Assembly (NCBI GenBank): GCA_031405995.1
Contig: JANOGJ010000260.1
Coordinates: 1-33,649 of the forward strand
Reading direction: 5' to 3'
From: Acidobacteriota bacterium
Lineage (GTDB): Bacteria; Acidobacteriota; Vicinamibacteria; Vicinamibacterales; SCN-69-37
DNA length: 33,649 bases
A program made the position numbers and the translations under genes. The notes beneath the pieces are model-generated. The model worked only from the letters and a program-made list of their open reading frames with translations. It did not search any database and was not told the origin of the DNA. This document shows positions 7,201 to 33,649 of this stretch, in pieces (position 1 is the first letter of the stretch; the number at the start of each line of letters is the position of its first letter).

Positions 7201-9965
7201 GAGATGCCTGGATAGTCGGCGTCGATGGCCTTTGACGATAGTTTGAAAGGTTGCCCCTTTTCGTCGGCGAAGACCTGGAGATCGGCGCCCTCCGGCATCT
7301 GCCCTTGCGCGAAGTACCGGAAAGCCTCGACCTGGCGCTCCGAATTGATCTCGGCCGCGACCTGTTCCTGGACCTTGACCCGCTCTTCCTGCCACCACGT
7401 CTCAGTCTCGCGGCGCTTCTCGGCGGCGATCCTGGCACCCAAACCGCGAGCGGCCTCGTCGTGAGCCTGCGCGGCTTTGTTTTGGTATTCGGCGAAGGCG
7501 GCCTCGGACATGCCTGCCTCTGCCGCGCTTTTGAACATCGGGATGTAGGCTTGGGCGTTTTCGACGTTGGCGATGGCGTCGTCAGTGGCGATCATCCGGT
7601 CCATGACACCGCGGACCTCATCGCTCAACTCGACACCCAAACCACCGATCTTGCGGTAGATGGATTTGAGCCATGCCGAGAATCGCGCGAAAGTCCTGAC
7701 TAATTGCAGGGACGGTGCCTTGCCTTCCTGGAGGTACTTCTCGAAGGCACGGGCGAACTTCTCGTGGTGCTCCGGCGTGATCTCTTCCCGAGTTTTCACG
7801 TGGAAATAGCCTAGCAATGTCTCGAAGTCGGCGCGCGTCTGATCGGTCGACTCGCCCCGGTACGCCAGGTCGGCGAACGTCTCCAGGAAGTAGTGCCCGG
7901 TCTCGTGGAGGAACGTCGACCGATCGGCGTTCTTCGTCGAAAGGGTCATCGTGAACCCAGGCCCGCGGCGCTCCGTCAGCCCGATCGCTGCGCCGGCCTT
8001 GTTGAGCAGCGACGGCTCCCCGCCCTCGGTGAAGAACTTGATCGACCCGTTCGCTTCAAGCGAGACGTCGGACTTGATGTCCAGCGGGAAGATCGTGGAC
8101 AGGTCTTCCTCGGTCAGACCGGTGCGCGCCGCCTGCGCCTTGAAGTAGGACTCGTGCAGCTTGGCGTAGTGGTCGGCATCGGTCTCTGGAACCCCGATCG
8201 AGATGAGTTTCGAGAATCTGTCCATGTAGATCGGGCTCATTTTGCGCGCCGCGACGTCCGCTTCGGTCATCTGGAACGGTAGTTCGGTGAGGACCTTCTG
8301 ATGCTCCTGGGCCTCCTTCGGCGTCATCGACTCCTGGTAGAACTTGGCGTCAGGAACCAAGGCCGCGTGGTATTCGGTTGGGGCGATCTCGCTGACGTAC
8401 TTCCCGAACGGAATTGCCACGAATCCGCCGGTTTCCTTGGCGTTGGCGTACTCCTGACCGACTCCGATCTGTTCTGCTGCTGCGGCCGGGTCGATCCCCT
8501 TGGACTGGAAGAGAGTCGTCCATGCGTCGGCCGCCACGAGGACCGATTCGGGGTGCCCGTTGGCCGCCGCGGCGCCGTCGGCGAACTCTGCCATCGCCGC
8601 CGGGTTGGTTTCCGCCAGCCGCACGTTCCTGGCGATTCCGCCGAGCGATTCCAGCCGAGCCTTGGCAGCAAGCCCCTGCCTCATGGATGAGACATCGCTG
8701 TGGAATTGTCCTGCTGGGCCGGGGACGATCAGAAGGGCCAACGAAAGGGCGGCCTCCTTGGCCTCGGTTCCCATCTCGCCGATGATCCCGGCGAAGTTGG
8801 TTTGGCCGCCCTCCGAACCAACTACGGTCTCGCGGCCTAGCGCGGTCACGCCAGCCTGTCCGGTCTCCGTGCCGACTTCCGCGCCGAATGTCGCCATGTA
8901 CTTGACTGCGGCCTGCGCCATCGCCTTTCTCAGCGTCAGACCGCCGAAATCGGCCTTCTTCGAGATGCCTCCAAAGACTGGCTGTAGGAACGGGAAGAGC
9001 GTCATCGCGACCTTGGACCCGGCGACCTCTATGACCGCGTTGGCCGCACCGACGACCGACGCCGCAGCGGCTGCGGTACGGAAGTTCACCGCACCGCCGC
9101 GCTCTTTCATGGCCTCGACGATGTCTCCGTAGGCCGCTCCTGACTCTTGCTGCCATGTGTCGTACCCAACACCCGCCAGGAACCCGGCCGAAGCCGTGGC
9201 CGGGACCAGCGGAGCGGCCTCCGGGCCAGCCGCCATTGTCAGCGCCGCAGCTTCGGCCCCCATGGCAAGCCCACCGCCTACTCCAGACGCCAGTGACCCC
9301 AACGTCTCAAGGGTCCCGGTCGCCATGCGCGCGAACGTGCCGTGGCTCTCCTTGCCGTAGTCCTCCGACATGAACGATTCGAGTTCCGCAATCCTTGGGT
9401 TCTCGGAAGGGTCGGCGCCTGACAGCATGGCTCGCAGCAACAGGTCCGACCGCTCCCTCTGGGCGCCGCCGACACGGATCGCGCGCGACCAAGCCCCCTC
9501 GTCGTAGACCATACGTGGCCGGCCGAACGCCGCGGTCTCACCGCTTGGGTGCATTCGGCCGGTCCACCACTCAAGTCCTTGGAGCGACTTCAGGTCGTCC
9601 CTGGCCTGGGCCATGTTGTCGATCTTGGAGACCCACGACGCCAGAATTGGAGAGTGTGCCATCAGGCTTTCGAGATCGACGTCCTTCTGGGCCGCCACTT
9701 CCTTGACCTGGGCCTGGTTGCGCTCCACGACGTCGCGCGGGAGCCCGGTGCGGTCGGCCATGCGGATCACGTTGGCGTGAGCGGCCGGGTCCTTGGTCGC
9801 GGCGACGCGGGCGGACGTGTCGAGCGCCGACGCCTGCCTGCGCTGGAGCTCCGCAAACACGTCATCCGGCGACGGCTCGACGAGCGGAGCAGCATCCATC
9901 GCAGAGAACACGTCATCCGGCGACGGATCTGTGTCTGGCGCGGCGTTCGGATCGTATCCGCTCAT
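4230..9965 (-). CDS. Giant internal virion / ejection protein (gp16-slot analogue, 1911 aa) with a zincin-like HExxH motif
   Basis: Uninterrupted 5.7-kb ORF. ATG 9965 overlaps the stop of the upstream gene (ATGA). It lies between the gp15-like ORF and the fibre. FLHETGHYFLE is at nt 7893-7907 (residues 687-691). Confidence 0.85.
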   Translation of the reverse strand: MSGYDPNAAPDTDPSPDDVFSAMDAAPLVEPSPDDVFAELQRRQASALDTSARVAATKDPAAHANVIRMADRTGLPRDVVERNQAQVKEVAAQKDVDLESLMAHSPILASWVSKIDNMAQARDDLKSLQGLEWWTGRMHPSGETAAFGRPRMVYDEGAWSRAIRVGGAQRERSDLLLRAMLSGADPSENPRIAELESFMSEDYGKESHGTFARMATGTLETLGSLASGVGGGLAMGAEAAALTMAAGPEAAPLVPATASAGFLAGVGYDTWQQESGAAYGDIVEAMKERGGAVNFRTAAAAASVVGAANAVIEVAGSKVAMTLFPFLQPVFGGISKKADFGGLTLRKAMAQAAVKYMATFGAEVGTETGQAGVTALGRETVVGSEGGQTNFAGIIGEMGTEAKEAALSLALLIVPGPAGQFHSDVSSMRQGLAAKARLESLGGIARNVRLAETNPAAMAEFADGAAAANGHPESVLVAADAWTTLFQSKGIDPAAAAEQIGVGQEYANAKETGGFVAIPFGKYVSEIAPTEYHAALVPDAKFYQESMTPKEAQEHQKVLTELPFQMTEADVAARKMSPIYMDRFSKLISIGVPETDADHYAKLHESYFKAQAARTGLTEEDLSTIFPLDIKSDVSLEANGSIKFFTEGGEPSLLNKAGAAIGLTERRGPGFTMTLSTKNADRSTFLHETGHYFLETFADLAYRGESTDQTRADFETLLGYFHVKTREEITPEHHEKFARAFEKYLQEGKAPSLQLVRTFARFSAWLKSIYRKIGGLGVELSDEVRGVMDRMIATDDAIANVENAQAYIPMFKSAAEAGMSEAAFAEYQNKAAQAHDEAARGLGARIAAEKRRETETWWQEERVKVQEQVAAEINSERQVEAFRYFAQGQMPEGADLQVFADEKGQPFKLSSKAIDADYPGISQTARKVLGRSGMTATGGIHPDAVAPLFGYESGDELLLALTTQAHPDARITRQTAAAMIEKHGDILNDGTLPEASQEAARDSKARLSQLLQELDALNRRAGNRRVRLTAADLKAAAFENIRAGKVRDLDPASYQRAERTAATNAIKAAGKGKYDEAVEWQRRRLLNFALAREATEAKREADSAVRFLRNSGGPAARAKLGLAGGTYQEQQDALLGRFDFRNRTLKAIDRTQALGDWITEQEALSFDPVVSQKLRIESFKEHWKNLSVNDLLDLRNAVKSIQYTASIKNKLIVVGKERAAEAVKEEALESIKKNIPDPGRAVIDSTTAGAVERFAQFRNKFDAWAVRLEELALQMDGNDPNGIFSQFLVHAPADAQAAEKTLGMETATKLLRAFEQMPKADMRLLHTGRVYVKSIDQTFTFKGLLGIAANYGNDSNYSKLLGGYQTEQGGLIKWSDATIEEALSHLTEAHWDYVQNFWNILDALWPAAEALEKRRTGLAPPKVERRSFTRQFADGTSKTYEGGYYPVIAHPKFSSLLAEKMTGPDGGPFDAKSYVAAITPHGHLIERTGANFAIDLDINRLPGHVVQVVHDTTHREAIINAWRFITVPEIAAEIKHRLGLPYYQAMLERLRRIAGARGMSSFGGDYMAAAQSAMAAAVMGYKGTVATQNFANLAIAHTVVGELEFGKAAVDLINNHAETMEFIKNSSPEMRYRMTTRDNEVRREFERAVTGDSWVQAVRRSGYTMANMTNALIDYPTWLAKYRMELAAKLTHEQAVRSADSTIRTNFGAGGVKDIAAFQDDQIFRYFSMFSGWFNNAYNQQRRLIRETKGLAAEGRYAKAAKHAIMNEFWRVAVMAVASEILSGRGPKDGEKAWDWALTQIALYHASMIPFVKEMSSALAKKNDPRLFGLESLALSTVRAIESDVKAFKGGNILPAVEDSAALIATLYGLPVSQAQITGGYIRDLATGRERFRKPSDALKFIFRRDKERRR

Positions 9966-11698
9966 GGCCTCGCCTTCATGTTCTGCTCAACGTCGTAGTA
10001 CTGGCGAATCGACACTGGGTCTGACGGCCTCCCGGCGTTTCTCAGGATGGCTTCGATGCGTGCCGCGTCAGCCGAAGGAATGCCGACAGGGGCCTCGACG
10101 ACTTGTTCTTTGTCGGGGACGAAAGCGTCGCCACGCTTGGCTTCGAACTTTCGAATGTCCGTGTCGACCAGATACCACTTCCCGGTCTTCCGTTCACCTT
10201 CGATCAGGGCCTCGTCGATGATCTTCTGGGCCTCGATGCGGTTTGGTCGCCTACCTTCATGCGCTTGGAACGCATCGACCTCGTTGCGGACATATTTCTC
10301 GAAGCCGCCGACCTTCTCGTCGGACGTGATCTTGTCGCCCTCGTAGAAGAAAGCCGCGTTCTCCCTGATGGCCGTGTCGACCATGCCCTGAGTTGTCTCG
10401 TTATCGAGCGACGGCCCGGCCGGAGTCTTCCCGGCTGCGGACAGACCGCGGGCGAAGTTGTTCAGGTCCTCCACCTCTCGAAGCGCGTACCGCATGTCCT
10501 CGTCGGTGACTTTCCCTCTGAGGACCGTCATCGGGTGATTCTTCGGGTCTCGCTTCCACTCCGGGGACTGCAAAATCCAGTTGCCCCACAATGCCAGGTC
10601 GGAACGCTTCGGGCTGGAAGAGCGGTTCGCGTCCTGCTCCTCGATGTTCTTCATCTGCTGTTCTGTCTCGCCCGAGAACGCACGCATCTGCAAGAGCGTC
10701 TCTCGGGGAACAGCGGACAGCCTGCTGCCGCCGGCCTCGAAGGCTTCCCACGCCTTGTCGAGCACGCCGCGCTCGTAGTCCTTACGCACCTCGTCCCTCT
10801 CGGCGAATCGGACCTTGATCGCCTGGACTGCGTTCTCCTCTTCCTTGCCGGAAAGTGTTGCGCGGGCCGCGTCGATCGCAGCCCTCTGGTCGTTCGGGTT
10901 GTTTTTCAGAATGCCGTCGACCGTAGCCTGCTGTTTGGTCAGGTCGTCGGTCTGCGCGTAGACCTTCGACCAGTGCTCGCGATCCTTGGAGGTGAGTTCG
11001 CCCTCGTGCGCCACGTAGAACTTTAGGAACTCCGAGTGATTCGCGGCACCGTCGAGCGCGCCCAACACAGACGACAGCACGCCGCTGCGCGCTTCCGCTT
11101 GCTGTGCCTGAGTGATCTCGTCGGACCATCCGTTCGCGACAGCACGACTCGCGACGGCCGAATCCGCATCGGCCAAGGCTCCGGAGATCATCTCCGGGTA
11201 TTTGGCCGCCGCGTTCGACGCGTTGGCGATTCTGGCGACGGCCGATTGATCCGCGAGTACCTCAGCCTGTTTCGCCTCGTGGCGCAGCACCGCAGAACGC
11301 GCGTCGGTCGCCATACGCTGCGCGTTCGGAACGAACTTGTCCCGCTGCGAATCGTTCGCGAGCCCAGCCGAAAGCTCCTTGGCCCGTGCTTCGATCGCGG
11401 CATACGCATCGGCAGACGCCCCGATGGCGTCCTTCCCGTTCTTCTGTAGAGCCGCATCCGTAAGGGCCTGCCGCTCGGAGTCGAACGTCGCTAAGTCGGC
11501 GTTGACTCTGACGTAGTCGGCGCGCTCTTGCGCCGCCTGCTGCGCGTTCGACTGGACCGTCAGCGCGGCCCCGGCACGGCCGATGACCTCTGCCGTCTCC
11601 TGACCAAAAGCGTTTGGCGGGACGGACGAGTCCTGATAGCCGGGATCGTAACCACGCGGCTTGACCGTTCGGCCTGCGACGACAGGAATTTGGGGCAC
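9962..11698 (-). CDS. Internal virion protein (gp15-slot analogue, about 578 aa, helical, Ala/Gln-rich)
   Basis: The listed ORF starts at 11851 inside the upstream gene. GTG at 11698-11696 overlaps the upstream TAG by 1 nt (TAGTG) and gives the N-terminus (M)PQIPVVAGRTVKP. By recollection this resembles N-termini of podovirus internal virion proteins. There is no other start codon nearby. Confidence 0.68.
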   Translation of the reverse strand: MPQIPVVAGRTVKPRGYDPGYQDSSVPPNAFGQETAEVIGRAGAALTVQSNAQQAAQERADYVRVNADLATFDSERQALTDAALQKNGKDAIGASADAYAAIEARAKELSAGLANDSQRDKFVPNAQRMATDARSAVLRHEAKQAEVLADQSAVARIANASNAAAKYPEMISGALADADSAVASRAVANGWSDEITQAQQAEARSGVLSSVLGALDGAANHSEFLKFYVAHEGELTSKDREHWSKVYAQTDDLTKQQATVDGILKNNPNDQRAAIDAARATLSGKEEENAVQAIKVRFAERDEVRKDYERGVLDKAWEAFEAGGSRLSAVPRETLLQMRAFSGETEQQMKNIEEQDANRSSSPKRSDLALWGNWILQSPEWKRDPKNHPMTVLRGKVTDEDMRYALREVEDLNNFARGLSAAGKTPAGPSLDNETTQGMVDTAIRENAAFFYEGDKITSDEKVGGFEKYVRNEVDAFQAHEGRRPNRIEAQKIIDEALIEGERKTGKWYLVDTDIRKFEAKRGDAFVPDKEQVVEAPVGIPSADAARIEAILRNAGRPSDPVSIRQYYDVEQNMKARP

Positions 11699-26398: not shown

Positions 26399-27862
26399 TC
26401 ATTCCGCTTCTGCTGGCGCATTCTGCGTCAGCCACAACCTGACGAGCTTCCCGTGATCCTTGCCGCGCTTGACCTTGCCTTGGCTCGTCATCGTCGCCAG
26501 GGCCTTTTCGAGTCCGCGCCGACCGAACCCGGCCGTTACGGCCTGGTCGAAAACGTCCTTCCTGAGAGCTCCATCGTCACCTGAACGAGCCAGGTGAGTC
26601 CAGATCGCCATGTCGCACCCGGCTTTCGGCGCCGTTGCCTCGACCCGAGCCCACGGGTCCTCAGAATCACCACCCTTGACCCATTTCGTCGTCAGGAATC
26701 CAGGCAGAGCCTCGCCGGATCGGTTCTTTCGGCACTCGAACGTGCGCTCGTCCGTGTTCCGGTCGCCGTAGATCACCCAACCCGTGTCGGTGATGTCCAT
26801 TTTTGACCCGGCGCCGCGGATGCGGTGGGCTACCTCTTGTTTTTCGTCGTCCTTCCCCGGCTTCCGCATGTGGTCAAGGATCACGAACGCGCACCCGTAG
26901 TCGATGCAGAGAGGCATCAGGGCCTCGTCCAGAAAGGCCGACATCTCGGAGTTGTCGTTCTCCGATCGGGTGTGGAAGCGAGCCATCGAGTCGAGAATCA
27001 CCAGGACAGGCCGCTGAACATCCATCACGCGGCGAAGTGCTGCTAGGCCGCGCGGCTGATCGAGCTTGATACGATTGCGTGTCAGGTAGCGGATCGGCCG
27101 GCGTTCTGTCGGGTCAAGCCCGCGGCCCCGCACCATCCGGTAGAATCGGCTCTCGACGACGCGACTCGGGTTCTCTTCGTCGACGTAGAGCACCGGCCCG
27201 GTCTTGATGACCGGGATCATCCCCATCCAGTCGATCCCGCTCGTAACAGCCAGGACCAAGTCGTCGACAATCAGGCTCTTCCCCGTTCCCCACTCCCCGC
27301 CGAAGATGACCCGATCGTCCTCAGCGAGCCAGCCTTCCGCGATCCACGGGATCGGAGATATGGGTGTGTTGCAGGCAGCCCAAATGTCGATCTCACGCAG
27401 CGCGGGCTCGTCCTGCCGCTCCAACCGCTTCGACAGACTGACCAGCACGGCCCGGACGGCCTCAGAGCCTTCCGTCTGGGCGAGCGTGGCAGCGGCTGTC
27501 GCCCCAGTGATCGCGTCCCTGCGGGCTTCCAACTCACGCAGGACCCCAGCGTAGTGGGTGATGTTGCTGGCCGTCCAAGCGCCAGCGTGGAGCTCGGCCA
27601 GGTATTTGGCGCCACCGGCCCCTTTCAGTTGGTCCGTGTCGCACAGATGCCGATGCAACAGGATCAGGTCACAGGTCCCGTGCTTGACCAGTGTCTGGGC
27701 GATGCCGCGGAAGATGAACCGATGCCGCTCGGAATAGAAAGCCGTGACCGGGAGCGCCGCCACCTCGCCAACGCGGTGTGGCTCCAGCAATAGGGAACCG
27801 ATGACGGCACGCTCAGTGAACAGATCGTGCGGCAGAGCGTCAGGCAACGCTTGGGCTTCCAA
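26399..27862 (-). CDS. Replicative helicase: DnaB N-terminal-like domain fused to a RepA/AAA_25-type RecA-fold ATPase (487 aa)
   Basis: LPHDLFTERAVIGSLLLEP is a DnaB-N signature. Walker A is GGEWGTGKS and Walker B is VLVILDSM. The start is TTG 27862 with GGGGG 6-7 nt upstream; no in-frame ATG precedes the DnaB-N motif. Confidence 0.88.
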   Translation of the reverse strand: MEAQALPDALPHDLFTERAVIGSLLLEPHRVGEVAALPVTAFYSERHRFIFRGIAQTLVKHGTCDLILLHRHLCDTDQLKGAGGAKYLAELHAGAWTASNITHYAGVLRELEARRDAITGATAAATLAQTEGSEAVRAVLVSLSKRLERQDEPALREIDIWAACNTPISPIPWIAEGWLAEDDRVIFGGEWGTGKSLIVDDLVLAVTSGIDWMGMIPVIKTGPVLYVDEENPSRVVESRFYRMVRGRGLDPTERRPIRYLTRNRIKLDQPRGLAALRRVMDVQRPVLVILDSMARFHTRSENDNSEMSAFLDEALMPLCIDYGCAFVILDHMRKPGKDDEKQEVAHRIRGAGSKMDITDTGWVIYGDRNTDERTFECRKNRSGEALPGFLTTKWVKGGDSEDPWARVEATAPKAGCDMAIWTHLARSGDDGALRKDVFDQAVTAGFGRRGLEKALATMTSQGKVKRGKDHGKLVRLWLTQNAPAEAE

Positions 27863-27889
27863 TGTTCGACCCCCGGCGGTAGCGCGACG

Positions 27890-28039
27890 CTACAACAACT
27901 TTTTTAGTTTGGGAATGGCCTTGCGGATTCTCTTGCGATAGTCGCAGGGAGGCTTTTGTCCGTTCTCGATCCAACGTGCCAGGGCTAACGCCGTGCCGGC
28001 GGTTCGTGGAAGACGGGCCTCGACGTCTTTCTTGGTCAC
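27890..28039 (-). CDS. Possible 49-aa basic protein (below the track cut-off)
   Basis: GTG 28039 overlaps the upstream TGA (GTGA) and is preceded by GGGGGAGGG. Translation (M)TKKDVEARLPRTAGTALALARWIENGQKPPCDYRKRIRKAIPKLKKLL. Confidence 0.45.
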   Translation of the reverse strand: MTKKDVEARLPRTAGTALALARWIENGQKPPCDYRKRIRKAIPKLKKLL

Positions 28040-28344
28040 AAGCGGACCCTCCCCCGTATCGCATCAACCGTCGTCGTCAGCCCGGTTATCTGCACGATCC
28101 AGCGCAAGCTGCCAGGGCCAGTCTCGTCGGAAGCGAACCACTTGATCGCGTCGTCTCGGTCCATCGTCGCCCGGCTCTTGCTCCATTGCCACCTGTGGAC
28201 CACCGTCGCATCGCGAAATGCCTGCTCCAACACCGCGAACCACAGATTGCGCTCGCATTCACACTCGCACGACGGTCGTAGCAGCGCGTCGTCAGGGTCG
28301 CCCATGTCGAGATCGAGTGTCTCTTCAAATGCTTGGTTCGCCAT
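28036..28344 (-). CDS. Hypothetical protein (102 aa)
   Basis: ATG 28344 has GGAG 9 nt upstream. The C-terminal AIKWFASDETGPGSLRWIVQITGLTTTVDAIRGRV resembles a recurrent small phage protein pattern (W....SF.W.C..LG.D...R). Confidence 0.6.
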   Translation of the reverse strand: MANQAFEETLDLDMGDPDDALLRPSCECECERNLWFAVLEQAFRDATVVHRWQWSKSRATMDRDDAIKWFASDETGPGSLRWIVQITGLTTTVDAIRGRVRL

Positions 28345-28750
28345 TGGGCGGCTCCATGCTCTCGATGGCAACCTCGCATCGAGGGTTCCCGTACATCTTG
28401 ACAGCGTGCAGACACACGACCCTGGAATCGTCGGCCCAAATACCGGCCTGGTTGCAGCCGTCGAGCACGGCCTTGACCATGTTGTCGAGATCGGGTTTCG
28501 TCGCGGGGAGAATGACGCGCTTGGGCGCGCTTTTTGGCCTTGGCATGTAGAACAGCGCCGTCACCTTGAGCGGCCCGTCCATTGGCGGCCGGCCGCGGTG
28601 CGCCGTTGATGCAGACATGGCGACCAAGTTTTCGTAAGCCGCAGTCTTGTCGTCGGTGTAGGCCCGAACGAAGTCCCCACGCCGAGCGATTCGCGGGCGA
28701 CCTTTCCCCCGCGGTGCGCCTGGAACTGTGAACGAGACGGTGTCCCTCAC
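28325..28750 (-). CDS. rusA: RusA-family Holliday junction resolvase (141 aa)
   Basis: VSFTVPGAPRGKGRPR...YTDDKTAAYE...LKVTALFYMPRPKS...KPDLDNMVKAVLDGCNQAGIWADDSRV is the RusA signature, including the catalytic Asp cluster. GTG 28750 overlaps the upstream TGA (GTGA) behind GAGGGGGGAGAA. The listed 215-aa form is an out-of-context extension. Confidence 0.85.
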   Translation of the reverse strand: MRDTVSFTVPGAPRGKGRPRIARRGDFVRAYTDDKTAAYENLVAMSASTAHRGRPPMDGPLKVTALFYMPRPKSAPKRVILPATKPDLDNMVKAVLDGCNQAGIWADDSRVVCLHAVKMYGNPRCEVAIESMEPPNGEPSI

Positions 28751-29019
28751 TTCTCCCCCCTCGCCACCTCTTCCACCGTCACCTTGACACGCACTGGGCG
28801 CGGCATACGCCAACAGTGCGGCTCGATTCGGAGATCCTTGCGGCCCTTGATGTACCCGAAGTGCTTCTCGGCCCATTCTCGCGCCGCCTTGCGTGTTAGA
28901 AACGTCTTGAACTGGAGGGCGTCCCAAAGCATGAGGTGTCGCGACGGGTTCCTCCTTGATCGCGAATCCCACAGTACGGCCCAGCGATGGTAAGTGTGCT
29001 TAGCTTTTTGTGGTTCCAT
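28747..29019 (-). CDS. Hypothetical protein (90 aa)
   Basis: ATG 29019 is preceded by GGGGGGA. Its stop is coupled to the RusA start. Confidence 0.6.
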   Translation of the reverse strand: MEPQKAKHTYHRWAVLWDSRSRRNPSRHLMLWDALQFKTFLTRKAAREWAEKHFGYIKGRKDLRIEPHCWRMPRPVRVKVTVEEVARGEK

Positions 29020-29935
29020 CTACGTCCCCCCTAGCAACTGAGCGCGAGAGCTGCTCCGCGAGGGAGTCGCGGTCGGCTTCGGCGGCATCCGCTCGGTCTG
29101 TCGCAACTAGCGCAACACCATGCGCCTTCGCCGCGTTTGCCATTTCGTCGAGTCGATGCTTGTCGCATTCGATCCGCGCCTTCCGCTCGGCCTCGATTTG
29201 CGCTTCCATCTGCGCGACGACGTTCGCCACACCGCTGCGCGTCTCAGCCGCTTTCACTTCACCCTTTAGAAACTCGACCTCGGCGCGGAGGCGCACGATC
29301 TCGTTGTTCGCTTCGTCAAGCACCGCTTGGCCCTCAAGCGAGATCACAGGCTTCGCCTCGTACGCCGCGATGACGGCGGCGCGGGCTTTGGCTCGTCGCT
29401 GTGTGCCCTGCGCCGACGTGTCCCCGGTGTGCCAGGAACGTTCGCACATGAGCGCGTAATCCAACGCCTTCTCGAACTTCCCACTCCCCGGCGCGGGCTT
29501 GGGTGTGGCTGCGCTTCGGAATGACGCGGCGACCTCCGGGCTCAGTTGAACTACAGGCATCGCGTAGGGGTCGCCAATCGCCTCGGGGTTGAGCACCACC
29601 GATCCGGTAAGGCGCATGTGCTCATGTTGCTCCGGTGCTAATAGCCCGCCCGATGGTGGCGTGGGCGAGGGCGCGGGAACACACTCGGCGCATGGTACAG
29701 CGCCGGGAGGCGAGTGAACGCACCCACCGTCTCGCGTGGGCACGCTCGGGGCCGCAGAAGAATGCAGAACGTGGTACTCCCAATCGACACCACATTCGGG
29801 ACAGTACCCGAAGCGACTTGGCTTGAATCGACTTGGCCCCGGCTCGGTGAGGGTGAGGAGCATTTCTTCAGCCTTACCGGAGTCGCCCCACGCCTCTGAT
29901 AACCACCGCGCCGCCTCCTGCCTACTTGTGGTCAT
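29000..29935 (-). CDS. Hypothetical protein (311 aa): shared 31-aa leader, CxxC...CxxC zinc-ribbon-like segment, C-terminal coiled coil
   Basis: ATG 29935 overlaps the end of the 70-aa gene. MTTSRQEAARWLSEAWGDSGKAEEMLLTLTE, then CPEC...CAEC, then a long heptad region. The listed 371-aa form overlaps the upstream gene. Confidence 0.6.
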   Translation of the reverse strand: MTTSRQEAARWLSEAWGDSGKAEEMLLTLTEPGPSRFKPSRFGYCPECGVDWEYHVLHSSAAPSVPTRDGGCVHSPPGAVPCAECVPAPSPTPPSGGLLAPEQHEHMRLTGSVVLNPEAIGDPYAMPVVQLSPEVAASFRSAATPKPAPGSGKFEKALDYALMCERSWHTGDTSAQGTQRRAKARAAVIAAYEAKPVISLEGQAVLDEANNEIVRLRAEVEFLKGEVKAAETRSGVANVVAQMEAQIEAERKARIECDKHRLDEMANAAKAHGVALVATDRADAAEADRDSLAEQLSRSVARGDVDGTTKS

Positions 29936-29938
29936 CGC
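29842..29938. repeat. Copy 1 of a perfect 97-bp direct repeat
   Basis: Base-for-base identical to 30758-30854 by manual alignment. The flanking bases differ. Confidence 0.95.
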
Positions 29939-30134
29939 TGGACTCCTCCTGCGGCTCGATTCGTCCGAGTAGTTTGACAACATAATCGGCATGGCGCGTA
30001 GCAAACGCCTCAGCTTTGTCAATCGTTGCGTGGGTGTTAATGCCGATTTGTAACCACACAGGGAGCCACCAGCGCCACAGTTGAACCTCGTAACCGGCGT
30101 GGCCGTCGCGGACAATCCGGTAGTGGGCGCTCAT
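29922..30134 (-). CDS. Hypothetical protein (70 aa)
   Basis: ATG 30134 (ATGA overlap with the upstream stop) is preceded by GGAGGGGA. MSAHYRIVRDGHAGYEVQLWRWWLPVWLQIG... Confidence 0.55.
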   Translation of the reverse strand: MSAHYRIVRDGHAGYEVQLWRWWLPVWLQIGINTHATIDKAEAFATRHADYVVKLLGRIEPQEESSDDHK

Positions 30135-30466
30135 TTCGTCCCCTCCTTCACAATCCTGTTTGCGATGCGGGCGAGGGCTTCGCAGGCTGCCAACCATCGC
30201 TCCGTATAGAGACTTTCGCTTTCACCCGCAGCGACGACCATGTTCGGTATCACCGCGTATTCCTCGTCGGGGAACTCGTGAACAATCCACGGCCCCGCCT
30301 TCGCCACGATCTCCCGGTCGCGAGCGTCGGCTGTCTTGGCGTAGCGTGGGACGTGCTGCCTACACGTCACTCCAGTAGTTGCGCGGCGCAAACAGCGCGG
30401 CCCGAAACCATTTGCGACCCTAGCAACACATTGGTCGGCTGAGAGGCGCTTACGACTCATCGCCAT
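30131..30466 (-). CDS. Hypothetical protein (111 aa) with a C-x10-C-x10-C-x2-H motif
   Basis: ATG 30466 or 30460 overlaps the end of the upstream gene. CVARVANGFGPRCLRRATTGVTCRQH looks like a small zinc-binding motif. Confidence 0.55.
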   Translation of the reverse strand: MAMSRKRLSADQCVARVANGFGPRCLRRATTGVTCRQHVPRYAKTADARDREIVAKAGPWIVHEFPDEEYAVIPNMVVAAGESESLYTERWLAACEALARIANRIVKEGTK

Positions 30467-30851
30467 CCCCCAACGCACCGCAGGCGCGGGCCAGTTGTCG
30501 CAAGTTGCCAACGGTGTGATGACACGGGATCTCACGTTCAAGGGGCGAATCGTGCGTGTCCCCGCAGCAATCGCAATCGCGGGTCGCGTCCGATGGTGGC
30601 GTGGGGGTGTCTTGGTCGGGAGTCCCAGGAGTCGAACCTGGGCGGGGCTTTTTCGGCATCGGCGTACCGGCCACAAGCACCTCACGCTCCTCGCCAATCT
30701 GCTCACGGGTGCGACCCGCTGTCCTGCCGCTGGACTCATCTTCCCGATTCGATTCTCGCTCGGTGAGGGTGAGGAGCATTTCTTCAGCCTTACCGGAGTC
30801 GCCCCACGCCTCTGATAACCACCGCGCCGCCTCCTGCCTACTTGTGGTCAT
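30450..30851 (-). CDS. Hypothetical protein (133 aa) with the same 31-aa leader as the 29000-29935 gene; Cys/His cluster CDCCGDTH...CHH
   Basis: ATG 30851 (ATGA overlap) sits directly behind a G10 tract. The first 31 residues are identical to the paralog. Confidence 0.55.
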   Translation of the reverse strand: MTTSRQEAARWLSEAWGDSGKAEEMLLTLTERESNREDESSGRTAGRTREQIGEEREVLVAGTPMPKKPRPGSTPGTPDQDTPTPPSDATRDCDCCGDTHDSPLEREIPCHHTVGNLRQLARACGALGDGDES

Positions 30852-30854
30852 CGC
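30758..30854. repeat. Copy 2 of the perfect 97-bp direct repeat
   Basis: Identical to 29842-29938. Confidence 0.95.
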
Positions 30855-31135
30855 CCCCCCCCCAACGCACCGCAAGCGATTGCCTTCATATCCTCGATGG
30901 TGTTCATCGCGTGTTCGTGGTGGTCAAGGCTAAAGCGGCCACGACCCTCAGCGATCTCAGCTAACGCAGCCCTCAACGCATCCCGCTGCTCGGTGAGCTT
31001 CGCCACCTCAGCGCGGGCGTCGAGAAGGTCGGCGGCGAGGTCGTCGTGCAAGGAGTCCGTGTCGATCTCGTCTCCGTCACATTCATAGGTGCCAGTCTTG
31101 GTTATCTGCTCAACGTAATCGGTGTTAACCCTCAT
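30848..31135 (-). CDS. Hypothetical coiled-coil protein (95 aa)
   Basis: ATG 31135 is preceded by GGAGGTGGGGG. It ends ...IACGALGGGR; compare ...RACGALGDGDES at the end of the next gene. Confidence 0.55.
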   Translation of the reverse strand: MRVNTDYVEQITKTGTYECDGDEIDTDSLHDDLAADLLDARAEVAKLTEQRDALRAALAEIAEGRGRFSLDHHEHAMNTIEDMKAIACGALGGGR

Positions 31136-31577
31136 CCCCCACCTCCACCCCGGCTGCGCGAAGGATGGCGCGGGCCGCGACCCTTGCCGCGTCCGTCACG
31201 TCACCGCTCATCCAGTCGGCCTTGACCAGAGCCAGACGGATCGCTTCCATCAACTCCGTCTCGCCCACGGCTTGCGGAGCGGGCTCGCGTTTCAGCCGCT
31301 CGAACTCCGCGCGCACGTCCTCGACAATCGCCATCGAATCGTAGTCGCCGCGATTGACCCCACCGGAGTCTAAGATGTCACCTGCAATCGACTTGAGCAG
31401 AGCGCGATGGCGACAGCTTGTGTTCACCGCCGCCTCCTGCGCATCCGGCTCCCACTTGGGGATGCGCTTGACAGCGGCAACAGTGAATGCGTAGGTGTCG
31501 TCGTGCGTGAATTGACTGCGGAGTAGCGTCTCCAACGCCTTCCACCGCTCCACCAAGTCCCTACCCGACTTCGACAT
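31125..31577 (-). CDS. Hypothetical protein (150 aa)
   Basis: ATG 31577 is preceded by GGAGG, 9 nt after the TAA of the upstream gene. The listed 214-aa form is an Arg-rich extension overlapping that gene. Confidence 0.6.
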   Translation of the reverse strand: MSKSGRDLVERWKALETLLRSQFTHDDTYAFTVAAVKRIPKWEPDAQEAAVNTSCRHRALLKSIAGDILDSGGVNRGDYDSMAIVEDVRAEFERLKREPAPQAVGETELMEAIRLALVKADWMSGDVTDAARVAARAILRAAGVEVGDEG

Positions 31578-31588
31578 CTGAGCCTCCG

Positions 31589-32287
31589 TTAGCGCCGCGA
31601 GTGCGTGAGGATCGACACAGCCTTGACGCCAGGGATCGCCATCGCGCCCTTCTCGGCACGAGCGCGGGAGTTGAGCGCGACCATGTTCGGTTCGACGTAG
31701 AAGTTGTTCGACTGGTTGCCGCCAGCCCACGCCTTGAATGCGGCCATGTCTACGATCTCCGCGCCCCACGTCTCGCGCGTGGACACGCCGGCCACCTTCG
31801 CCACCTCGGGGCGCACGATCGCAACAGGAGGAGGCGGCAACGGAGCCGTCAACGCATCTTCGGCCTCATCCTCGGTGTCGGCCATCGCGGCGTCTAGCTC
31901 GCGCTGCGCGTCCTGCTTGGCGAGCGCTTCGGCGTGGAGGTGCTCTTGCACCTTGGCCGCTGCCTGCCTCTCGGCTGCCTCGAACGCTTTGCACGTTCCG
32001 CTCGCCGTATCGAGCGCGGTTAAGATCGGCGCCAGGAAGTGATCCTGCGCCGCGACGACCTCCTGGCGCGCCGCCTCGGCCTTGCGCTTGGACTCCATCG
32101 CGGCTTCGATGGACGGCTTGAAGAACAGCTTCACGCGGTCGCGTGCGTCCATGATGCGAGCGATCAGCGCCAGCCCCGCCGCGTGCTCTTCCACGTTGCG
32201 GACGACGAGGGCGTCTGCGGCGGCGATAACAGGGGCGACCTCGCGCTCGACCTGTTCGGTGTTGATGGTGGCGATGGCGTCACTCAC
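31589..32287 (-). CDS. Coiled-coil protein (232 aa), likely partner of the adjacent recombination protein
   Basis: Long Ala/Glu/Gln helical region plus a C-terminal globular part (VAGVSTRETWGAEIVDMAAFKAW). Its start overlaps the upstream stop. Confidence 0.65.
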   Translation of the reverse strand: MSDAIATINTEQVEREVAPVIAAADALVVRNVEEHAAGLALIARIMDARDRVKLFFKPSIEAAMESKRKAEAARQEVVAAQDHFLAPILTALDTASGTCKAFEAAERQAAAKVQEHLHAEALAKQDAQRELDAAMADTEDEAEDALTAPLPPPPVAIVRPEVAKVAGVSTRETWGAEIVDMAAFKAWAGGNQSNNFYVEPNMVALNSRARAEKGAMAIPGVKAVSILTHSRR

Positions 32288-33092
32288 TGAAAGGCGCCTC
32301 CTCTGTCGTCACGTCCCGGTACTCTGTGATGGTCGCGTTGCCCTTCGCCGTCATCTCGGAAATGATCTCGACGAAGTGCCCGTCGAGAGCGATCAGGCCC
32401 TCCGCGATGGTCTTGGAGAACGTCCCGAACTTCTCGCCGTAAGCACCGTGGAACGTGTAGAGCGTCCACGGTCCCTTTGGCGACTTGCCTTCCTTCGTCT
32501 CGAACTTGACGAGCTTCCCGCGCCAGGCCGGCGAGGCGTCACGGGCAGGCGGTCGGCTCGTAGCCGCCTGTTGTGTCCCCAGTGACGTTGGGTCGGTGCG
32601 CTCCTCACTGAATGAGCCGACGTGATCCATCTCCTCCGCTGGCGTCGTTTCGTACCGTTTTGCCAGCGACAGCACCCAAGCGAACGCGATGCGGCACGCC
32701 TTCCCGGTGGCACGAGTGATCGCCATGCTGCGGCGCGCGTTCTGCGGGCGCCCCATCCACACGCGATCGTCCGGCCCGCCGCACTCGGCCGACGCGCGGG
32801 TCAGCACCATCCCGTCGCTCATGCGGACCAGCTCGACCTCGGCCACGTACCGACCCTCCGGCATCTCGTGCACGGCGACCTCACGCGGGAGGCAGCCGCG
32901 GAGCGTGGCGAGTGTCACCCACCCCTCGACGCGGACGAACTTCTTTCCCTGGATCATCGAGAACAGCCTTTGCCCCTCGATCACTTCCGCGAGGACGTTG
33001 GCTTCCTCGGTGGCTTGTCGGATGATGGCACGCGGCGATGGTCGGTCCATCGCGGTGCCGATGTCCTCGATCTTGACTAGCGATTCGGTCAT
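32280..33092 (-). CDS. Putative single-strand annealing / ssDNA-binding protein with an OB-like C-terminal domain (270 aa)
   Basis: ATG 33092 is preceded by GGAGGAG. NARRSMAITRATGKACRIAFAWVLSLAKRYETTPAEEM resembles the terminal helix plus acidic linker of phage SSAPs. The C-terminal WRGKLVKFETKEGKSPKGPWTLYTF...FVEIISEMTAKGNATI looks like a beta-barrel. The function call is tentative. Confidence 0.65.
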   Translation of the reverse strand: MTESLVKIEDIGTAMDRPSPRAIIRQATEEANVLAEVIEGQRLFSMIQGKKFVRVEGWVTLATLRGCLPREVAVHEMPEGRYVAEVELVRMSDGMVLTRASAECGGPDDRVWMGRPQNARRSMAITRATGKACRIAFAWVLSLAKRYETTPAEEMDHVGSFSEERTDPTSLGTQQAATSRPPARDASPAWRGKLVKFETKEGKSPKGPWTLYTFHGAYGEKFGTFSKTIAEGLIALDGHFVEIISEMTAKGNATITEYRDVTTEEAPFSE

Positions 33093-33164
33093 TGTGTTAC
33101 TCTCCTCCCAACGGTTAAGACTTCCCTAGATGGGGCCTGGACTCACGATCCCGGCCCGCGTTGT

Positions 33165-33230
33165 TTAGAACGGAACCCCGTCGTCGACCACGACTCCGAG
33201 GATCACGGACAGGAACAGCACGGTCAGCAT
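33165..33230 (-). CDS. Possible 21-aa hydrophobic micropeptide (MLTVLFLSVILGVVVDDGVPF)
   Basis: ATG 33230 overlaps the stop of the Ala-rich gene and has AGGAG about 10 nt upstream. It is too short to judge statistically. Confidence 0.25.
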   Translation of the reverse strand: MLTVLFLSVILGVVVDDGVPF

Positions 33231-33649
33231 TCGGCATCACTCCTTTCGCCCATGTACGCCGTGATGGACGGCGCGTCGATGGCCTTCGAACAGGGATCAA
33301 TCAACCGATCAAGAAGCGCGAACGCCGACTCCTGTAGGCCAATCTTCGTCGGTTCGAGTTTCTTGCTCGCGGCATCCAACGCGGCATTCCACGCGGCATC
33401 CAACGCGGCATTCAACGCGGCAACCCACGCGGCAACCCACGCGGCATTCAACGCGGCAGCCGACGCGGCATCCCGCGCGGCAGCCCGCGCGGCAGCCGAC
33501 GCGGCAGCCAACGCGGCAACCCACGCGGCAACCCACGCGGCATTCAACGCGGCAGCCGACGCGGCATCCAACGCGGCATCCCGCGCGGCAGCCCACGCGG
33601 CAGCCGACGCGGAGGCCGATGTCGTTCGGGCGTCCTCGATGCTTGCGAT
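33224..33649 (-). CDS. Partial (N-terminus beyond the right edge) Ala/Trp-rich tetrapeptide-repeat protein with a unique 47-aa C-terminal tail
   Basis: The frame is open to nt 33649 (IASIEDARTTSASASAAAWAAARDAALDAAS...). The listed start at 33571 is only a TTG inside the repeat. The non-repeat tail SKKLEPTKIGLQESAFALLDRLIDPCSKAIDAPSITAYMGERSDAEC argues that this is the coding frame. Confidence 0.6.
   Translation of the reverse strand: MASIEDARTTSASASAAAWAAARDAALDAASAAALNAAWVAAWVAALAAASAAARAAARDAASAAALNAAWVAAWVAALNAALDAAWNAALDAASKKLEPTKIGLQESAFALLDRLIDPCSKAIDAPSITAYMGERSDAEC
33369..33620. repeat. Tandem array of about 21 units of a 12-nt repeat (plus strand GCGGCAnyCnrC)
   Basis: Units read directly from the sequence: gcggcatccaac, gcggcattccac, gcggcatccaac, gcggcattcaac, gcggcaacccac (x2), and so on. 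A higher-order repeat of about 96 nt is also visible. Confidence 0.95.

Follow-up and report, generated by a model that had tools for sequence, protein, structure and literature searches.

The window, the whole 33,649-nucleotide stretch of DNA analysed here, includes the early region of a podovirus-like phage, encoded on the minus strand, in which a 97-bp direct repeat was found (Table 1). The two copies are identical at 97 of 97 positions, are spaced 916 nt apart and are exactly two in a repeat search of the window; no further or partial copies appeared in a scan with 20-mers at up to four mismatches, which returned only four chance-level matches. Read on the coding strand, each copy comprises GCG, the start codon ATG and 31 codons (MTTSRQEAARWLSEAWGDSGKAEEMLLTLTE), and stands at the start of an open reading frame of 311 aa (gene A) or 133 aa (ORF B). 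A preliminary description of this DNA, made from the sequence alone, had reported the perfect identity, the common 31-codon head of the two frames and two small genes in the 819 bp between the copies, and these observations are borne out: the identity is far beyond chance, both frames are annotated in the NCBI record, and the intervening genes are g7 and g8.

Table 1 Features of the repeat region in the window, and copies of the tRNA-like RNA T at other loci
Feature	Position	Strand	Description
Gene A	29000..29935	-	311 aa: leader, CxxC..CxxC region, coiled coil
Patch c-prime	29647..29665	-	lies in gene A, 177 nt after repeat copy 2; matches c at 18/19
Repeat copy 2	29842..29938	-	true 5' end of gene A; g8 stop (TAG) 14 nt inside
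g8	29922..30134	-	70 aa; phrog_8363; last gene between the repeats
GAGTCCAGCG	29936..29945	-	straddles start of repeat copy 2; same 10-mer in T D arm (30728-30737)
g7	30131..30463	-	110 aa; weak match to phrog_16145; between the repeats
ORF B	30450..30851	-	133 aa; annotated in NCBI record
g5' stretch after T (putative remnant)	30450..30612	-	no start codon of its own; DCDCC motif; 3' end 19/20 identical to g5 3' end
Patch a-prime (g5' to g7 junction)	30457..30486	-	CGCCTGCGGTGCGTTGGGGGATGGCGATGA; GCGATGA also the first 7 nt of both repeat copies
Patch c	30587..30605	-	CCCACGCCACCATCGGACG; 153 nt after repeat copy 1
tRNA-like RNA T	30613..30747	-	135 nt; begins 10 nt after repeat copy 1
GAGCGAGAA	30753..30761	-	straddles end of repeat copy 1, whose last 4 nt are GAGC
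Repeat copy 1	30758..30854	-	upstream in transcription direction; heads ORF B; its ATG overlaps g5 stop (ATGA)
g5	30848..31135	-	95 aa, coiled-coil protein; last codon and stop inside repeat copy 1
Patch a (g5 to B junction)	30848..30878	-	CGCTTGCGGTGCGTTGGGGGGGGGGCGATGA; homologous to g5' to g7 junction
T homolog	L002:7372-7504
T homolog	L003:257-389
T homolog	L004:1525-1657
T homolog	L005:652-784
T homolog	L009:1271-1403
T homolog	L010:276-408
T homolog	L011:188-320

The phage carries neighbouring RusA and exonuclease-like genes, the latter identified by weak matches. Searches of g2-g8, g10 and A against Pfam, PHROGs and NCBIfam returned only RusA, the weak exonuclease-like matches and PHROGs of unknown function, and g2, the one protein compared with the PDB, gave no match. 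Homologs of gene A are limited to its coiled coil (P0002). Two records reached through this coiled coil (L007 and L008) were considered as relatives and set aside as too distant to show the ancestral gene order, and no close relatives of this phage were found in INPHARED, in IMG/VR (by DnaB) or in the protein collections searched.

The edges of the repeat are sharp, with alignment of the copies losing identity at both ends. In an independent assembly of run SRR20217207 (Logan), one unitig (L001) ends in copy 2 on the gene A side and another (L006) in copy 1 on the g5 side, each exactly 30 nt (k-1, with k=31) inside the outer edge of the repeat. Breaks at k-1 are what reads with two different contexts on either side of the repeat should produce, and both outer edges are branch points of the assembly graph. 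It is very improbable that the assembler produced the repeat, or the segment order, out of strain variants. The contig is metagenomic, short-read graphs alone cannot fix copy number across a repeat, and the unitig of the intervening cassette was not recovered from the Logan record, in which g8 (70 and 91 aa) and the 202-aa ORF are absent. Against an artefact, the contig requires both ends of the cassette to be joined to the repeat in reads, the independent unitigs break at the same k-1 position inside both outer edges, and g5 and g8 end on proper stop codons inside the repeat in two different frames; a typical read is longer than 97 nt and can cross the repeat by itself.

The sequences flanking the copies had been described as unalignable. 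While identity does stop at both ends, two more collinear patches accompany the repeat. Among direct repeats matching at 18 of 19 positions or better, three were observed between 27000 and 33300 against 0.03 expected, and these correspond to the collinear patches a, R (the repeat itself) and c. Patch a aligns with a-prime over 31 nt at 87% identity (E 2e-4), the heptamer GCGATGA included; within this alignment 30467-30486 and 30859-30878 agree at 19 of 20 positions, and the 16-mer TGCGGTGCGTTGGGGG occurs exactly twice. The near-identical stretch that gives the 95-aa and 133-aa proteins a shared ACGALG(G/D)G ending is thus real, but it is not an independent protein motif: the endings are a 20-31 nt homologous gene junction that includes a G-rich Shine-Dalgarno region and the next start codon. 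Were patches a and c the product of an old duplication, the leader, at 100% identity, would call for a recent conversion event of its own or for selection.

Short homologies were also found at the repeat boundaries. The 9-mer GAGCGAGAA is the native 5' flank of T, the tRNA-like RNA described below, in two other loci (L003 and L004), which makes it a candidate microhomology junction. The 10-mer GAGTCCAGCG has three matches in the window compared to 0.27 expected. These homologies measure no more than 4-10 nt, and some of them barely exceed chance. A selected RNA element or recombination site within the 97 nt, as the preliminary description suggested, may exist; neither promoter nor terminator consensus was detected inside the repeat on the coding strand, and the window has no dispersed copies of it.

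After codon 31, ORF B continues through a 10-nt spacer into a 135-nt tRNA-like RNA, here called T, and then runs for about 55 codons. T folds into a cloverleaf in which an acceptor stem of 5-6 bp is followed by ACCA and six unpaired nucleotides precede the D stem. The D arm (GUCC-AGCGGCA-GGAC) is followed by an 'anticodon' arm with a 5-bp stem, a covarying closing pair and a 5-nt loop of variable sequence (UCGCA, UCGCG or UAGCU), a variable arm of about 60 nt, and a 6-bp T arm with the loop UUCGACU. Across six sequences this cloverleaf comprises 40 pairs with 99.6% of cells paired and 9 pairs compensatory; when partners were slid by 1-3 columns as a control, about 40% were paired and at most one pair was compensatory. 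A coordinated base-pair indel was also observed in the acceptor stem. Substitutions in T fall almost equally on the three codon positions (10/12/11, no codon-position bias), T is open in five of six frames, and GC3 is flat across the T part of ORF B. T is a structured RNA and not coding.

T shares the D arm, a T arm with a UUCRANY loop and the covariation-backed cloverleaf order with tRNAs, and departs from them in having neither a 7-bp acceptor stem nor a 7-nt anticodon loop with U33 and a conserved anticodon. ARAGORN missed it even with lowered thresholds or introns allowed, and the Rfam tRNA model RF00005 gave T 16.8 bits in the window and its copy in L003 12.1 bits, relative to a gathering score of 29. 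A tmRNA was rejected: ARAGORN in tmRNA mode was negative, no Rfam tmRNA match was returned at E up to 10, and 135 nt is too short. A literature search on an RNA of this kind yielded nothing specific. T is most likely a tRNA mimic that would be cut from the early polycistronic transcript. A covariance model (R1) scored T at 149.5 bits, the single match in the window. Behind the leader copy of gene A, the region 29742-29846, which starts CGGGGCC...GGCCCCG, also folds well (z -2.97); as a second tRNA-like element it was rejected, with a best R1 score below 7 bits without filters and no homologs, and none is claimed.

The last 55 or so codons of ORF B show similarity only to the C-terminal end of the g5-like gene family that neighbours them. 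In two other loci (L002 and L003) a g5-like gene comes after T, and from this synteny the stretch 30450..30612 appears to be a remnant (g5') of such a gene. The matches behind this assignment are weak (BLASTP E 0.004-0.03), and it is made from a motif of five residues, a match of 20 nt and the position; no longer stretch of protein homology was found to join g5 to the C-terminus of ORF B, where only about 10 residues match (E 0.004). We read ORF B as a chimera of the leader (aa 1-31), a spacer, T read as protein (approximately aa 35-79) and the putative g5-like C-terminal remnant (approximately aa 90-133). Given plausible starts at both leader copies and 133 open codons, the chimeric protein may well be made.

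The composition of ORF B bears on the proposal, made in the preliminary description, that an exchangeable leader is carried by two genuine and otherwise unrelated genes. This did not hold, since ORF B mostly overlies the RNA gene and the putative g5-like remnant, and the leader was found on no other protein. No homologs of the leader exist among approximately 15 billion proteins; only ORF B was matched when 5.8 billion clusters were searched twice by word index and 1.84 billion representatives were scanned in full with phmmer, and a degenerate-codon DNA scan of IMG/VR was empty. A shared N-terminal domain family would place the leader, with variation, on other proteins, and only ORF B was matched; likewise, the leader was attached to other C-termini in neither the protein collections nor IMG/VR. 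The leader is an orphan.

It is nevertheless conceivable that the 31 residues form a functional N-terminal module, a two-helix docking or targeting leader of A and B kept identical by conversion, or by very recent duplication, under selection. Both copies have a Shine-Dalgarno-like sequence and a start codon (the Shine-Dalgarno of gene A, AGGAGGAG, lies 7 nt upstream and outside repeat copy 2), the ATG of ORF B is coupled to the stop codon of g5, the annotated ORF B is uninterrupted over its whole length, and the GC3 of the leader (0.74) is coding-like. For the leader AlphaFold predicted a self-contained two-helix hairpin (residues 3-16 and 19-30) that ends exactly at the repeat boundary and would also fit such a module; the model is of low confidence, being computed from a single sequence with pLDDT 60-73. 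We regard a functional module as unlikely, since about a third of ORF B is a covarying tRNA-like RNA without codon-position bias and the remainder resembles a gene remnant, homologs of the leader were nowhere found, and selection on the peptide does not explain the zero synonymous differences between the copies.

The distribution of T was then considered. Exact D-arm and T-loop patterns gave no matches in IMG/VR and GTDB genomes, and a JGI metagenome scan with T patterns gave one match; further copies were found by searching protein collections with the five open-frame translations of T, and in every public record examined T is seen as a called protein. T is 80-98% identical across at least five contexts with unrelated flanks (the window, L002, L003/L004, the group of L005, L009 and L010, and L011), and its length is 133-135 nt. 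The 3' ACCA is present in most copies, with CCA not kept in L002 (CCG) or L011 (CCT). This pattern, a conserved segment between unrelated neighbours, indicates that T is a discrete unit that moves.

An ORF that carries a start codon of its own enters T in the same frame in every context, and that frame is open through T in all copies. The ORF is coupled to an upstream gene in the window, L002 and L003, and in L003 and L004 a strong GGAGGAG lies 4 nt before an ATG that is itself 15 nt upstream of T. This arrangement would be compatible with a regulatory upstream ORF, in which translation from g5 into T controls its folding or processing, or T insulates downstream translation, with the leader supplying an efficient initiation region. 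We attach only a small probability to this model: with five of six frames open, GC-rich DNA would be expected to yield ORF calls across T, and the upstream ORFs are unrelated in sequence and length.

The context in L002 is also informative with respect to the repeat. There, a 36-nt leader starting 3 nt before an ATG and duplicated from a neighbouring gene lies near T, and a 221-nt direct repeat (93% identity) brackets a cassette of approximately 740 nt that ends with T; the sequence of this repeat differs from that in the window. A bracketed cassette comparable to that of the window could indicate a programmed deletion or cassette switch, in which the repeats are kept for excision and re-insertion of the 916-bp unit (T, g7 and g8) by a recombinase, giving mixed plus and minus genomes or an att-like mini mobile element. 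Perfect direct repeats of 97 bp, separated by 819 bp and carried by a phage that has RusA and exonuclease-like genes, accord with this scenario, and the de Bruijn topology equally fits a mixture of genomes with zero and one copy of the cassette or a 916-bp circle. The scenario is quite unlikely, as the annotated ORFs of the window include no integrase or site-specific recombinase, neither an inverted or core-type site structure nor other repeat copies were found, the L002 repeat is a different sequence at 93% identity and hence indicates no conserved site, and any duplication passively permits deletion between direct repeats. An att-flanked integrative element was rejected on related grounds: in the part of the phage that the window covers, all but about 14 kb, neither the scanned ORFs nor the gene table of the Logan assembly includes an integrase or recombinase family. 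A diversity-generating retroelement was rejected because the repeats are identical and no reverse transcriptase occurs in the neighbouring ORFs (Pfam, PHROG, NCBIfam).

Taken together, these results favour a model (probability roughly 0.55) in which microhomology mediated a recent duplication or conversion of the 5' end of gene A, next to a mobile module with a tRNA-like RNA, and so gave rise to the repeat. A recent origin by recombination or gene conversion, already raised in the preliminary description, is the best reading of a repeat far beyond chance. The edges are sharp, the junction homologies span 4-10 nt and no site is shared with L002, as expected of phage mosaic junctions. The first 94 nt of gene A and the 3 nt upstream would have been copied next to a module consisting of T, the g5-like remnant, g7 and g8, either by template switching or gene conversion, or by illegitimate and homologous crossover between related phages. 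Both routes would use the short homologies of the junctions: the left edge offers GCGATGA, the right edge of copy 1 GAGC(GAGAA) and the left edge of copy 2 GAGTCCAGCG. The repeat, T with its covariation, the junction homologies and the lack of leader homologs are direct observations; the order of events, the direction of copying and the processing of T we infer. Phage recombinases, including lambda Red and Rad52-like enzymes, recombine short or diverged homologies, and this relaxed homologous recombination generates phage mosaic junctions (PMC2327257, PMC3945230).

As a consequence of such an event, gene A would retain an intact copy of its 5' end with its own ribosome-binding site, and the upstream copy, coupled to the g5 stop codon, would head the chimeric ORF B through T and the gene remnant. 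The 916-bp unit would become deletable between the perfect repeats by phage recombination functions. The excision of 916 bp foreseen in the preliminary description stands, but the accompanying exchange of C-terminal 'cargo' does not, the product being g5-leader-A.

A broader and decidedly speculative model would treat T as a mobile unit of phage early regions that settles within small ORFs or at their heads, always leaves the host frame open, and provokes or rides on local duplications of neighbouring gene ends such as those in the window and L002. The passage from leader to T might then be functional, with the coupled upstream ORF controlling the release of a tRNA-mimic decoy or substrate for host tRNA-directed enzymes.

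The repeat in the window is a neat but ordinary case of phage genome reshuffling; the duplication mechanism is ordinary and the tRNA-like RNA is the novel part. The locus illustrates that a duplication can leave a scar that raw sequence presents as a shared leader, and that an RNA gene can account for most of a protein annotated at 133 aa. In T the locus offers a candidate for a new RNA family of phages: a tRNA mimic whose variable arm measures 60 nt and whose 'anticodon' loop has 5 nt, which Rfam does not contain and tRNA finders overlook. If processed like a tRNA, T would cut early polycistronic transcripts, and it could interact with host tRNA enzymes or with tRNA-targeting defences. The covariance model R1 is now available to seek further copies.

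Among known RNAs, class II tRNAs and allo-tRNAs with unusual cloverleaves provide the comparison set for T (PMC5389517). T resembles tRNA (RF00005) in the four-arm cloverleaf order, the GG of the D loop, the T loop UUCGACU and the 3' ACCA of most copies, and class II tRNAs in its long variable arm, while differing from tRNA in its 5-6 bp acceptor stem, the six unpaired nucleotides before the D stem, the variable 5-nt 'anticodon' loop and the variable arm of about 60 nt. Below the Rfam threshold, T was matched best by mascRNA/MEN-beta (RF01684; 20-25 bits, gathering score 42.5). mascRNA is released by RNase P and RNase Z, and processing of T would be modelled on this release. Both are tRNA mimics embedded in a longer transcript, whereas mascRNA is a product of about 60 nt from a eukaryotic nuclear lncRNA, and no homology is implied. 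The species 1 and 2 RNAs of phage T4 are stable RNAs, some 120-140 nt long, whose ends resemble those of tRNAs and which have no assigned function; they are processed from a polycistronic transcript and located in a tRNA gene cluster. In size and tRNA-like ends T would be comparable to these; unlike them, it lies inside an ORF of an early operon and not in a tRNA cluster.

Similarities to mobile elements were also apparent. Rickettsia palindromic elements are selfish structured repeats inserted in frame into protein genes, and T is comparable in its length of about 130 nt, its RNA structure, its location in called ORFs with the host frame always open, and its encoded hydrophilic peptide under no evident selection. 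It differs from them in occurring once per genome in the loci seen, in being shaped like a tRNA and not as a simple palindrome, and in showing no target-site duplication. Perfect direct repeats on either side of a small insert, one edge of which is tRNA-like, recall the attL/attR repeats of integrative elements at tRNA genes; in contrast to these, the repeat is the 5' end of a protein gene outside the tRNA-like sequence, and no integrase was found.

The closest framework for the repeat is the mosaicism model of Hendrix and Hatfull, in which phage mosaic junctions and partial gene duplications arise by illegitimate or relaxed homologous recombination. The window conforms to such junctions in its sharp breakpoints, one of which lies within 3 nt of a gene start, its short junction homologies, its neighbouring modules of very different divergence and its location in an early region with recombination genes. 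Unlike typical mosaic junctions, it holds a perfect 97-bp in-frame duplicate that is still translationally coupled, one of its breakpoints abuts a tRNA-like RNA, and a similar duplication surrounds T in the unrelated phage L002.

A 97-nt sequence (R) is present in exactly two copies in the window, which a repeat search found to be 100% identical. Their starts lie 916 nt apart, alignment reveals an abrupt loss of similarity on both sides, and no partial copies occur elsewhere in the window. On the minus strand each copy consists of GCG-ATG followed by 31 codons (MTTSRQEAARWLSEAWGDSGKAEEMLLTLTE). The preliminary description of two identical copies heading gene A and ORF B was accurate with respect to repeat search, alignment and ORFs, and the second short repeat that it placed at the ends of ORF B and the neighbouring small gene g5 is real (19/20 identity). 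Markov-1 simulations predict 0.03 direct-repeat pairs matching at 18/19 or better within 27000-33300, where three were observed. We consider it somewhat better than an even chance (roughly 55%) that R arose recently through duplication or conversion mediated by microhomology; with microhomology at the junctions, the recent gene conversion proposed at the outset is among the best-supported origins.

Features of the repeat region, with paired positions for sequence patches shared between its two halves
Feature	Position	Strand	Description
Gene A	29000-29935	minus	311 aa, headed by a copy of R
ORF B	30450-30851	minus	133 aa, headed by a copy of R
R, copy 1 / copy 2	30758-30854 / 29842-29938	minus	97/97 identical
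T (tRNA-like RNA)	30747-30613	minus	starts 10 nt after copy 1 of R
Patch a	30848-30878 / 30457-30486	minus	87% over 31 nt, next start codon included
Patch c	30587-30605 / 29647-29665	minus	18/19 identical

It is very unlikely that R, or the order of the segments, is an assembly artefact. Although the unitig of the cassette itself was not found in an independent assembly of the same phage (Logan, run SRR20217207, k=31), contig L001 (43.5 kb) stops exactly 30 nt inside copy 2 from the A side and contig L006 exactly 30 nt inside copy 1 from the g5 side. A de Bruijn graph breaks in this way, k-1 inside each outer edge, when a repeat can be entered from two sequences and left into two others. Moreover, the stop codons of g5 and of a second small gene, g8, both fall inside R in different frames.

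The 31-residue leader encoded by R is an orphan. Among 5.8 billion protein clusters the only leader homolog of A and B was B itself, a full phmmer search of A residues 1-106 against 1.84 billion representatives retrieved only B, and a degenerate-codon scan of IMG/VR for the leader returned nothing beyond B; these searches placed the leader on no other C-terminus. Only the coiled coil of A has homologs (P0002), and these lack the leader. AlphaFold, run on A as a single sequence (mean pLDDT 54), models the leader as helices 3-16 and 19-30 (pLDDT 60-73) that end at the repeat boundary, followed by low-confidence sequence. Such predicted helices are compatible with a small autonomous module, for which they are weak evidence. 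It is unlikely that R encodes a genuinely functional two-helix module common to A and B. Separately, the sequence right after copy 2 (29742-29846, minus; A codons ~31-65) is predicted to form a four-way junction whose closing 9-bp stem (GCCGGGGCC/GGCCCCG.GC) begins in the last bases of R. The fold has a z-score of -2.97 (2 of 200 shuffles) and a low local GC3 (0.60); neither homologs nor a match to the tRNA-like model were found for this segment.

Beyond the leader, ORF B contains T, which appears to represent an undescribed tRNA-like RNA family. Searching B against the 5.8 billion clusters yielded three 'proteins' (P0004-P0006) that match only B residues ~36-78 (65-80% identity) and are unrelated at both termini. 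Their DNA is 86% identical to that of B over ~135 nt, with 1-nt indels and a T-stem switch between the two (CCAGG/CCUGG to UUGGG/CCCAA). A gapped DNA pattern search gave a further copy (L005), and searching the protein collection with five stop-free frame translations of T gave three more (L009, L010 and L011). A cloverleaf was drawn by hand and tested on six distinct sequences (four for an earlier version). Standard pairs occupied 99.6% of cells in the proposed structure versus 37-49% when partners were slid by 1-3 columns, and compensatory changes supported nine pairs versus 0-1; in 500 column shuffles, values this high were never obtained, and a coordinated indel gains or loses one acceptor pair. 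In this structure the acceptor stem has 5-6 bp and leads into ACCA (replaced by ACCG in L002 and by ACCT in L011). The D arm reads GUCC-AGCGGCA-GGAC; the 'anticodon' stem, of 5 bp, closes a loop of only 5 nt and variable sequence; the variable arm is ~60 nt long; and the 6-bp T arm carries the loop UUCGACU.

Each of the seven records wrongly annotates T as protein. Because five of its six frames are stop-free in the window, an ORF across T is no evidence of coding; four or five of six are stop-free in three other copies checked, and its two sense frames are open in all four. Variable columns fall 10/12/11 at positions 1/2/3 of the called frame, GC3 is flat over the T part of B, and T is, as judged from its sequence, free of coding constraint. 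That the leader serves as a regulatory upstream ORF translated into T is very doubtful. The covariance model R1, built on T, detects a single copy in the window and none behind the other leader copy, at gene A. We infer that T would be cut out of the early transcript by tRNA-processing enzymes. The frame of g7, another small gene, is open backwards for 202 codons, into T (30131-30739, minus).

In two other loci (L002 and L003) the next gene after T is a small member of the g5 family, marked by a coiled coil (DARAEIATLR) and an end rich in Cys (CPRGDCDC). In the window, the 163 nt beyond T are without their own start codon, carry DCDCC and end in 19/20 nt identical to the g5 3′ end; we read them as a possible remnant (g5′) of a gene of this kind, to which the protein-level similarity is weak. 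ORF B can be read as leader, T and g5′, and would be a by-product. Three collinear patches (a, R and c) link the units g5-R-T and g5′-g7-g8-R-A, and short homologies coincide with the edges of R. GCGATGA is common to the g5-to-B, g5′-to-g7 and g8-to-A junctions; GAGCGAGAA spans the end of copy 1 and, in L003 and L004, natively flanks T on its 5′ side; GAGTCCAGCG occurs in the D arm of T and across the start of copy 2 (three matches versus 0.27 expected). The AGGAGGAG belonging to gene A lies outside R, 7 nt upstream, and B depends for its start on a G10 run and an ATGA overlap with g5.

This 10-G homopolymer (30854-30863, minus) forms the last Gly codons of g5 directly before the ATG of B. With one additional G, g5 and the leader ORF would become a single frame (..ALGGGAMTTSRQ..), and with one fewer g5 would end at a TAG 14 nt inside R; slippage may occur at this run, or the sequence may just be error-prone. 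A CTGCGGTG...GGGGG(A)GGGG motif closes small early genes at their 3′ ends, immediately ahead of the following start codon, in two unrelated phages (L003, 676-698 and 1138-1160; window, 30467-30482 and 30859-30874), and may be a common strong ribosome-binding junction or a recombination-prone linker.

If R arose by duplication or conversion, the first 94 nt of gene A and 3 nt upstream would have been copied to the 5′ side of a module starting with T, an order of events and a direction of copying that we infer. This could have occurred within one genome, by template switching or gene conversion, or between related phages, by one illegitimate and one homologous crossover. Recombination between the copies could remove the 916-bp unit (T, remnant, g7 and g8) and place g5 immediately ahead of A. 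It is quite unlikely that the unit is maintained as an excision switch or as an att-like cassette.

A parallel case is provided by L002, an unrelated phage early region, where the neighbourhood of T (7372-7504) is scrambled like that of the window. The ORF running into T opens with a 36-nt segment, starting 3 nt before the ATG, that is an 89% duplicate from the gene immediately upstream (6992-7027 / 7198-7233). A 221-nt direct repeat (93%; 6551-6771 / 7511-7728), holding the 3′ end of another gene and a hexamer array, brackets a ~740-nt cassette with T as its last element, the second copy beginning 7 nt after T. Both copies are followed by long hexamer arrays of the (GCTGGA)n type. Since the L005/L009/L010 lineage has no such duplication within 4.8 kb, the association of T with local duplications is suggestive, not established. 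The discrete boundaries of T in unrelated contexts suggest that it may be mobile.

The window is a complete 33,649-bp NCBI metagenomic contig from a podovirus-like phage. It encodes a T7-type portal (PF12236), GP7 capsid, terminase and DnaB, with RusA and exonuclease-like early genes; almost all genes lie on the minus strand, and no close relative was found in the collections searched. ORFs of 629, 1072 and then 1911 aa (4230-9965, minus), the first two without a Pfam hit, presumably encode internal virion or tail proteins. The genome runs ~14 kb past window position 1 in a Logan contig. At the contig end, an Ala/Trp-rich minus-strand ORF contains a 12-nt tandem array (33368-33612; 20.4 copies, 84% matches), at which L006 starts; L003 (1162-1521) and L002 (DUF6745 gene, 9587-10675; repeats 9812-10041) contain comparable Ala-rich repeat ORFs.

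The general mosaicism model of phages fits the reading of R as a duplication. R adds one more example to a process already known. Phage recombination systems act on short or diverged homology (PMC2327257, PMC3945230), a behaviour with which this reading of R agrees. T has no Rfam entry and a non-canonical architecture. It was undetected by ARAGORN, and an Rfam search of 5.6 kb at E up to 10 gave no match. On T alone, the tRNA model scored 16.8 bits (gathering score 29) and the tRNA-like mascRNA model 20-25 bits (gathering score 42.5), both sub-threshold. The tRNA alignment assigns the arms of T in the same way and has a 60-nt insertion in the variable region.
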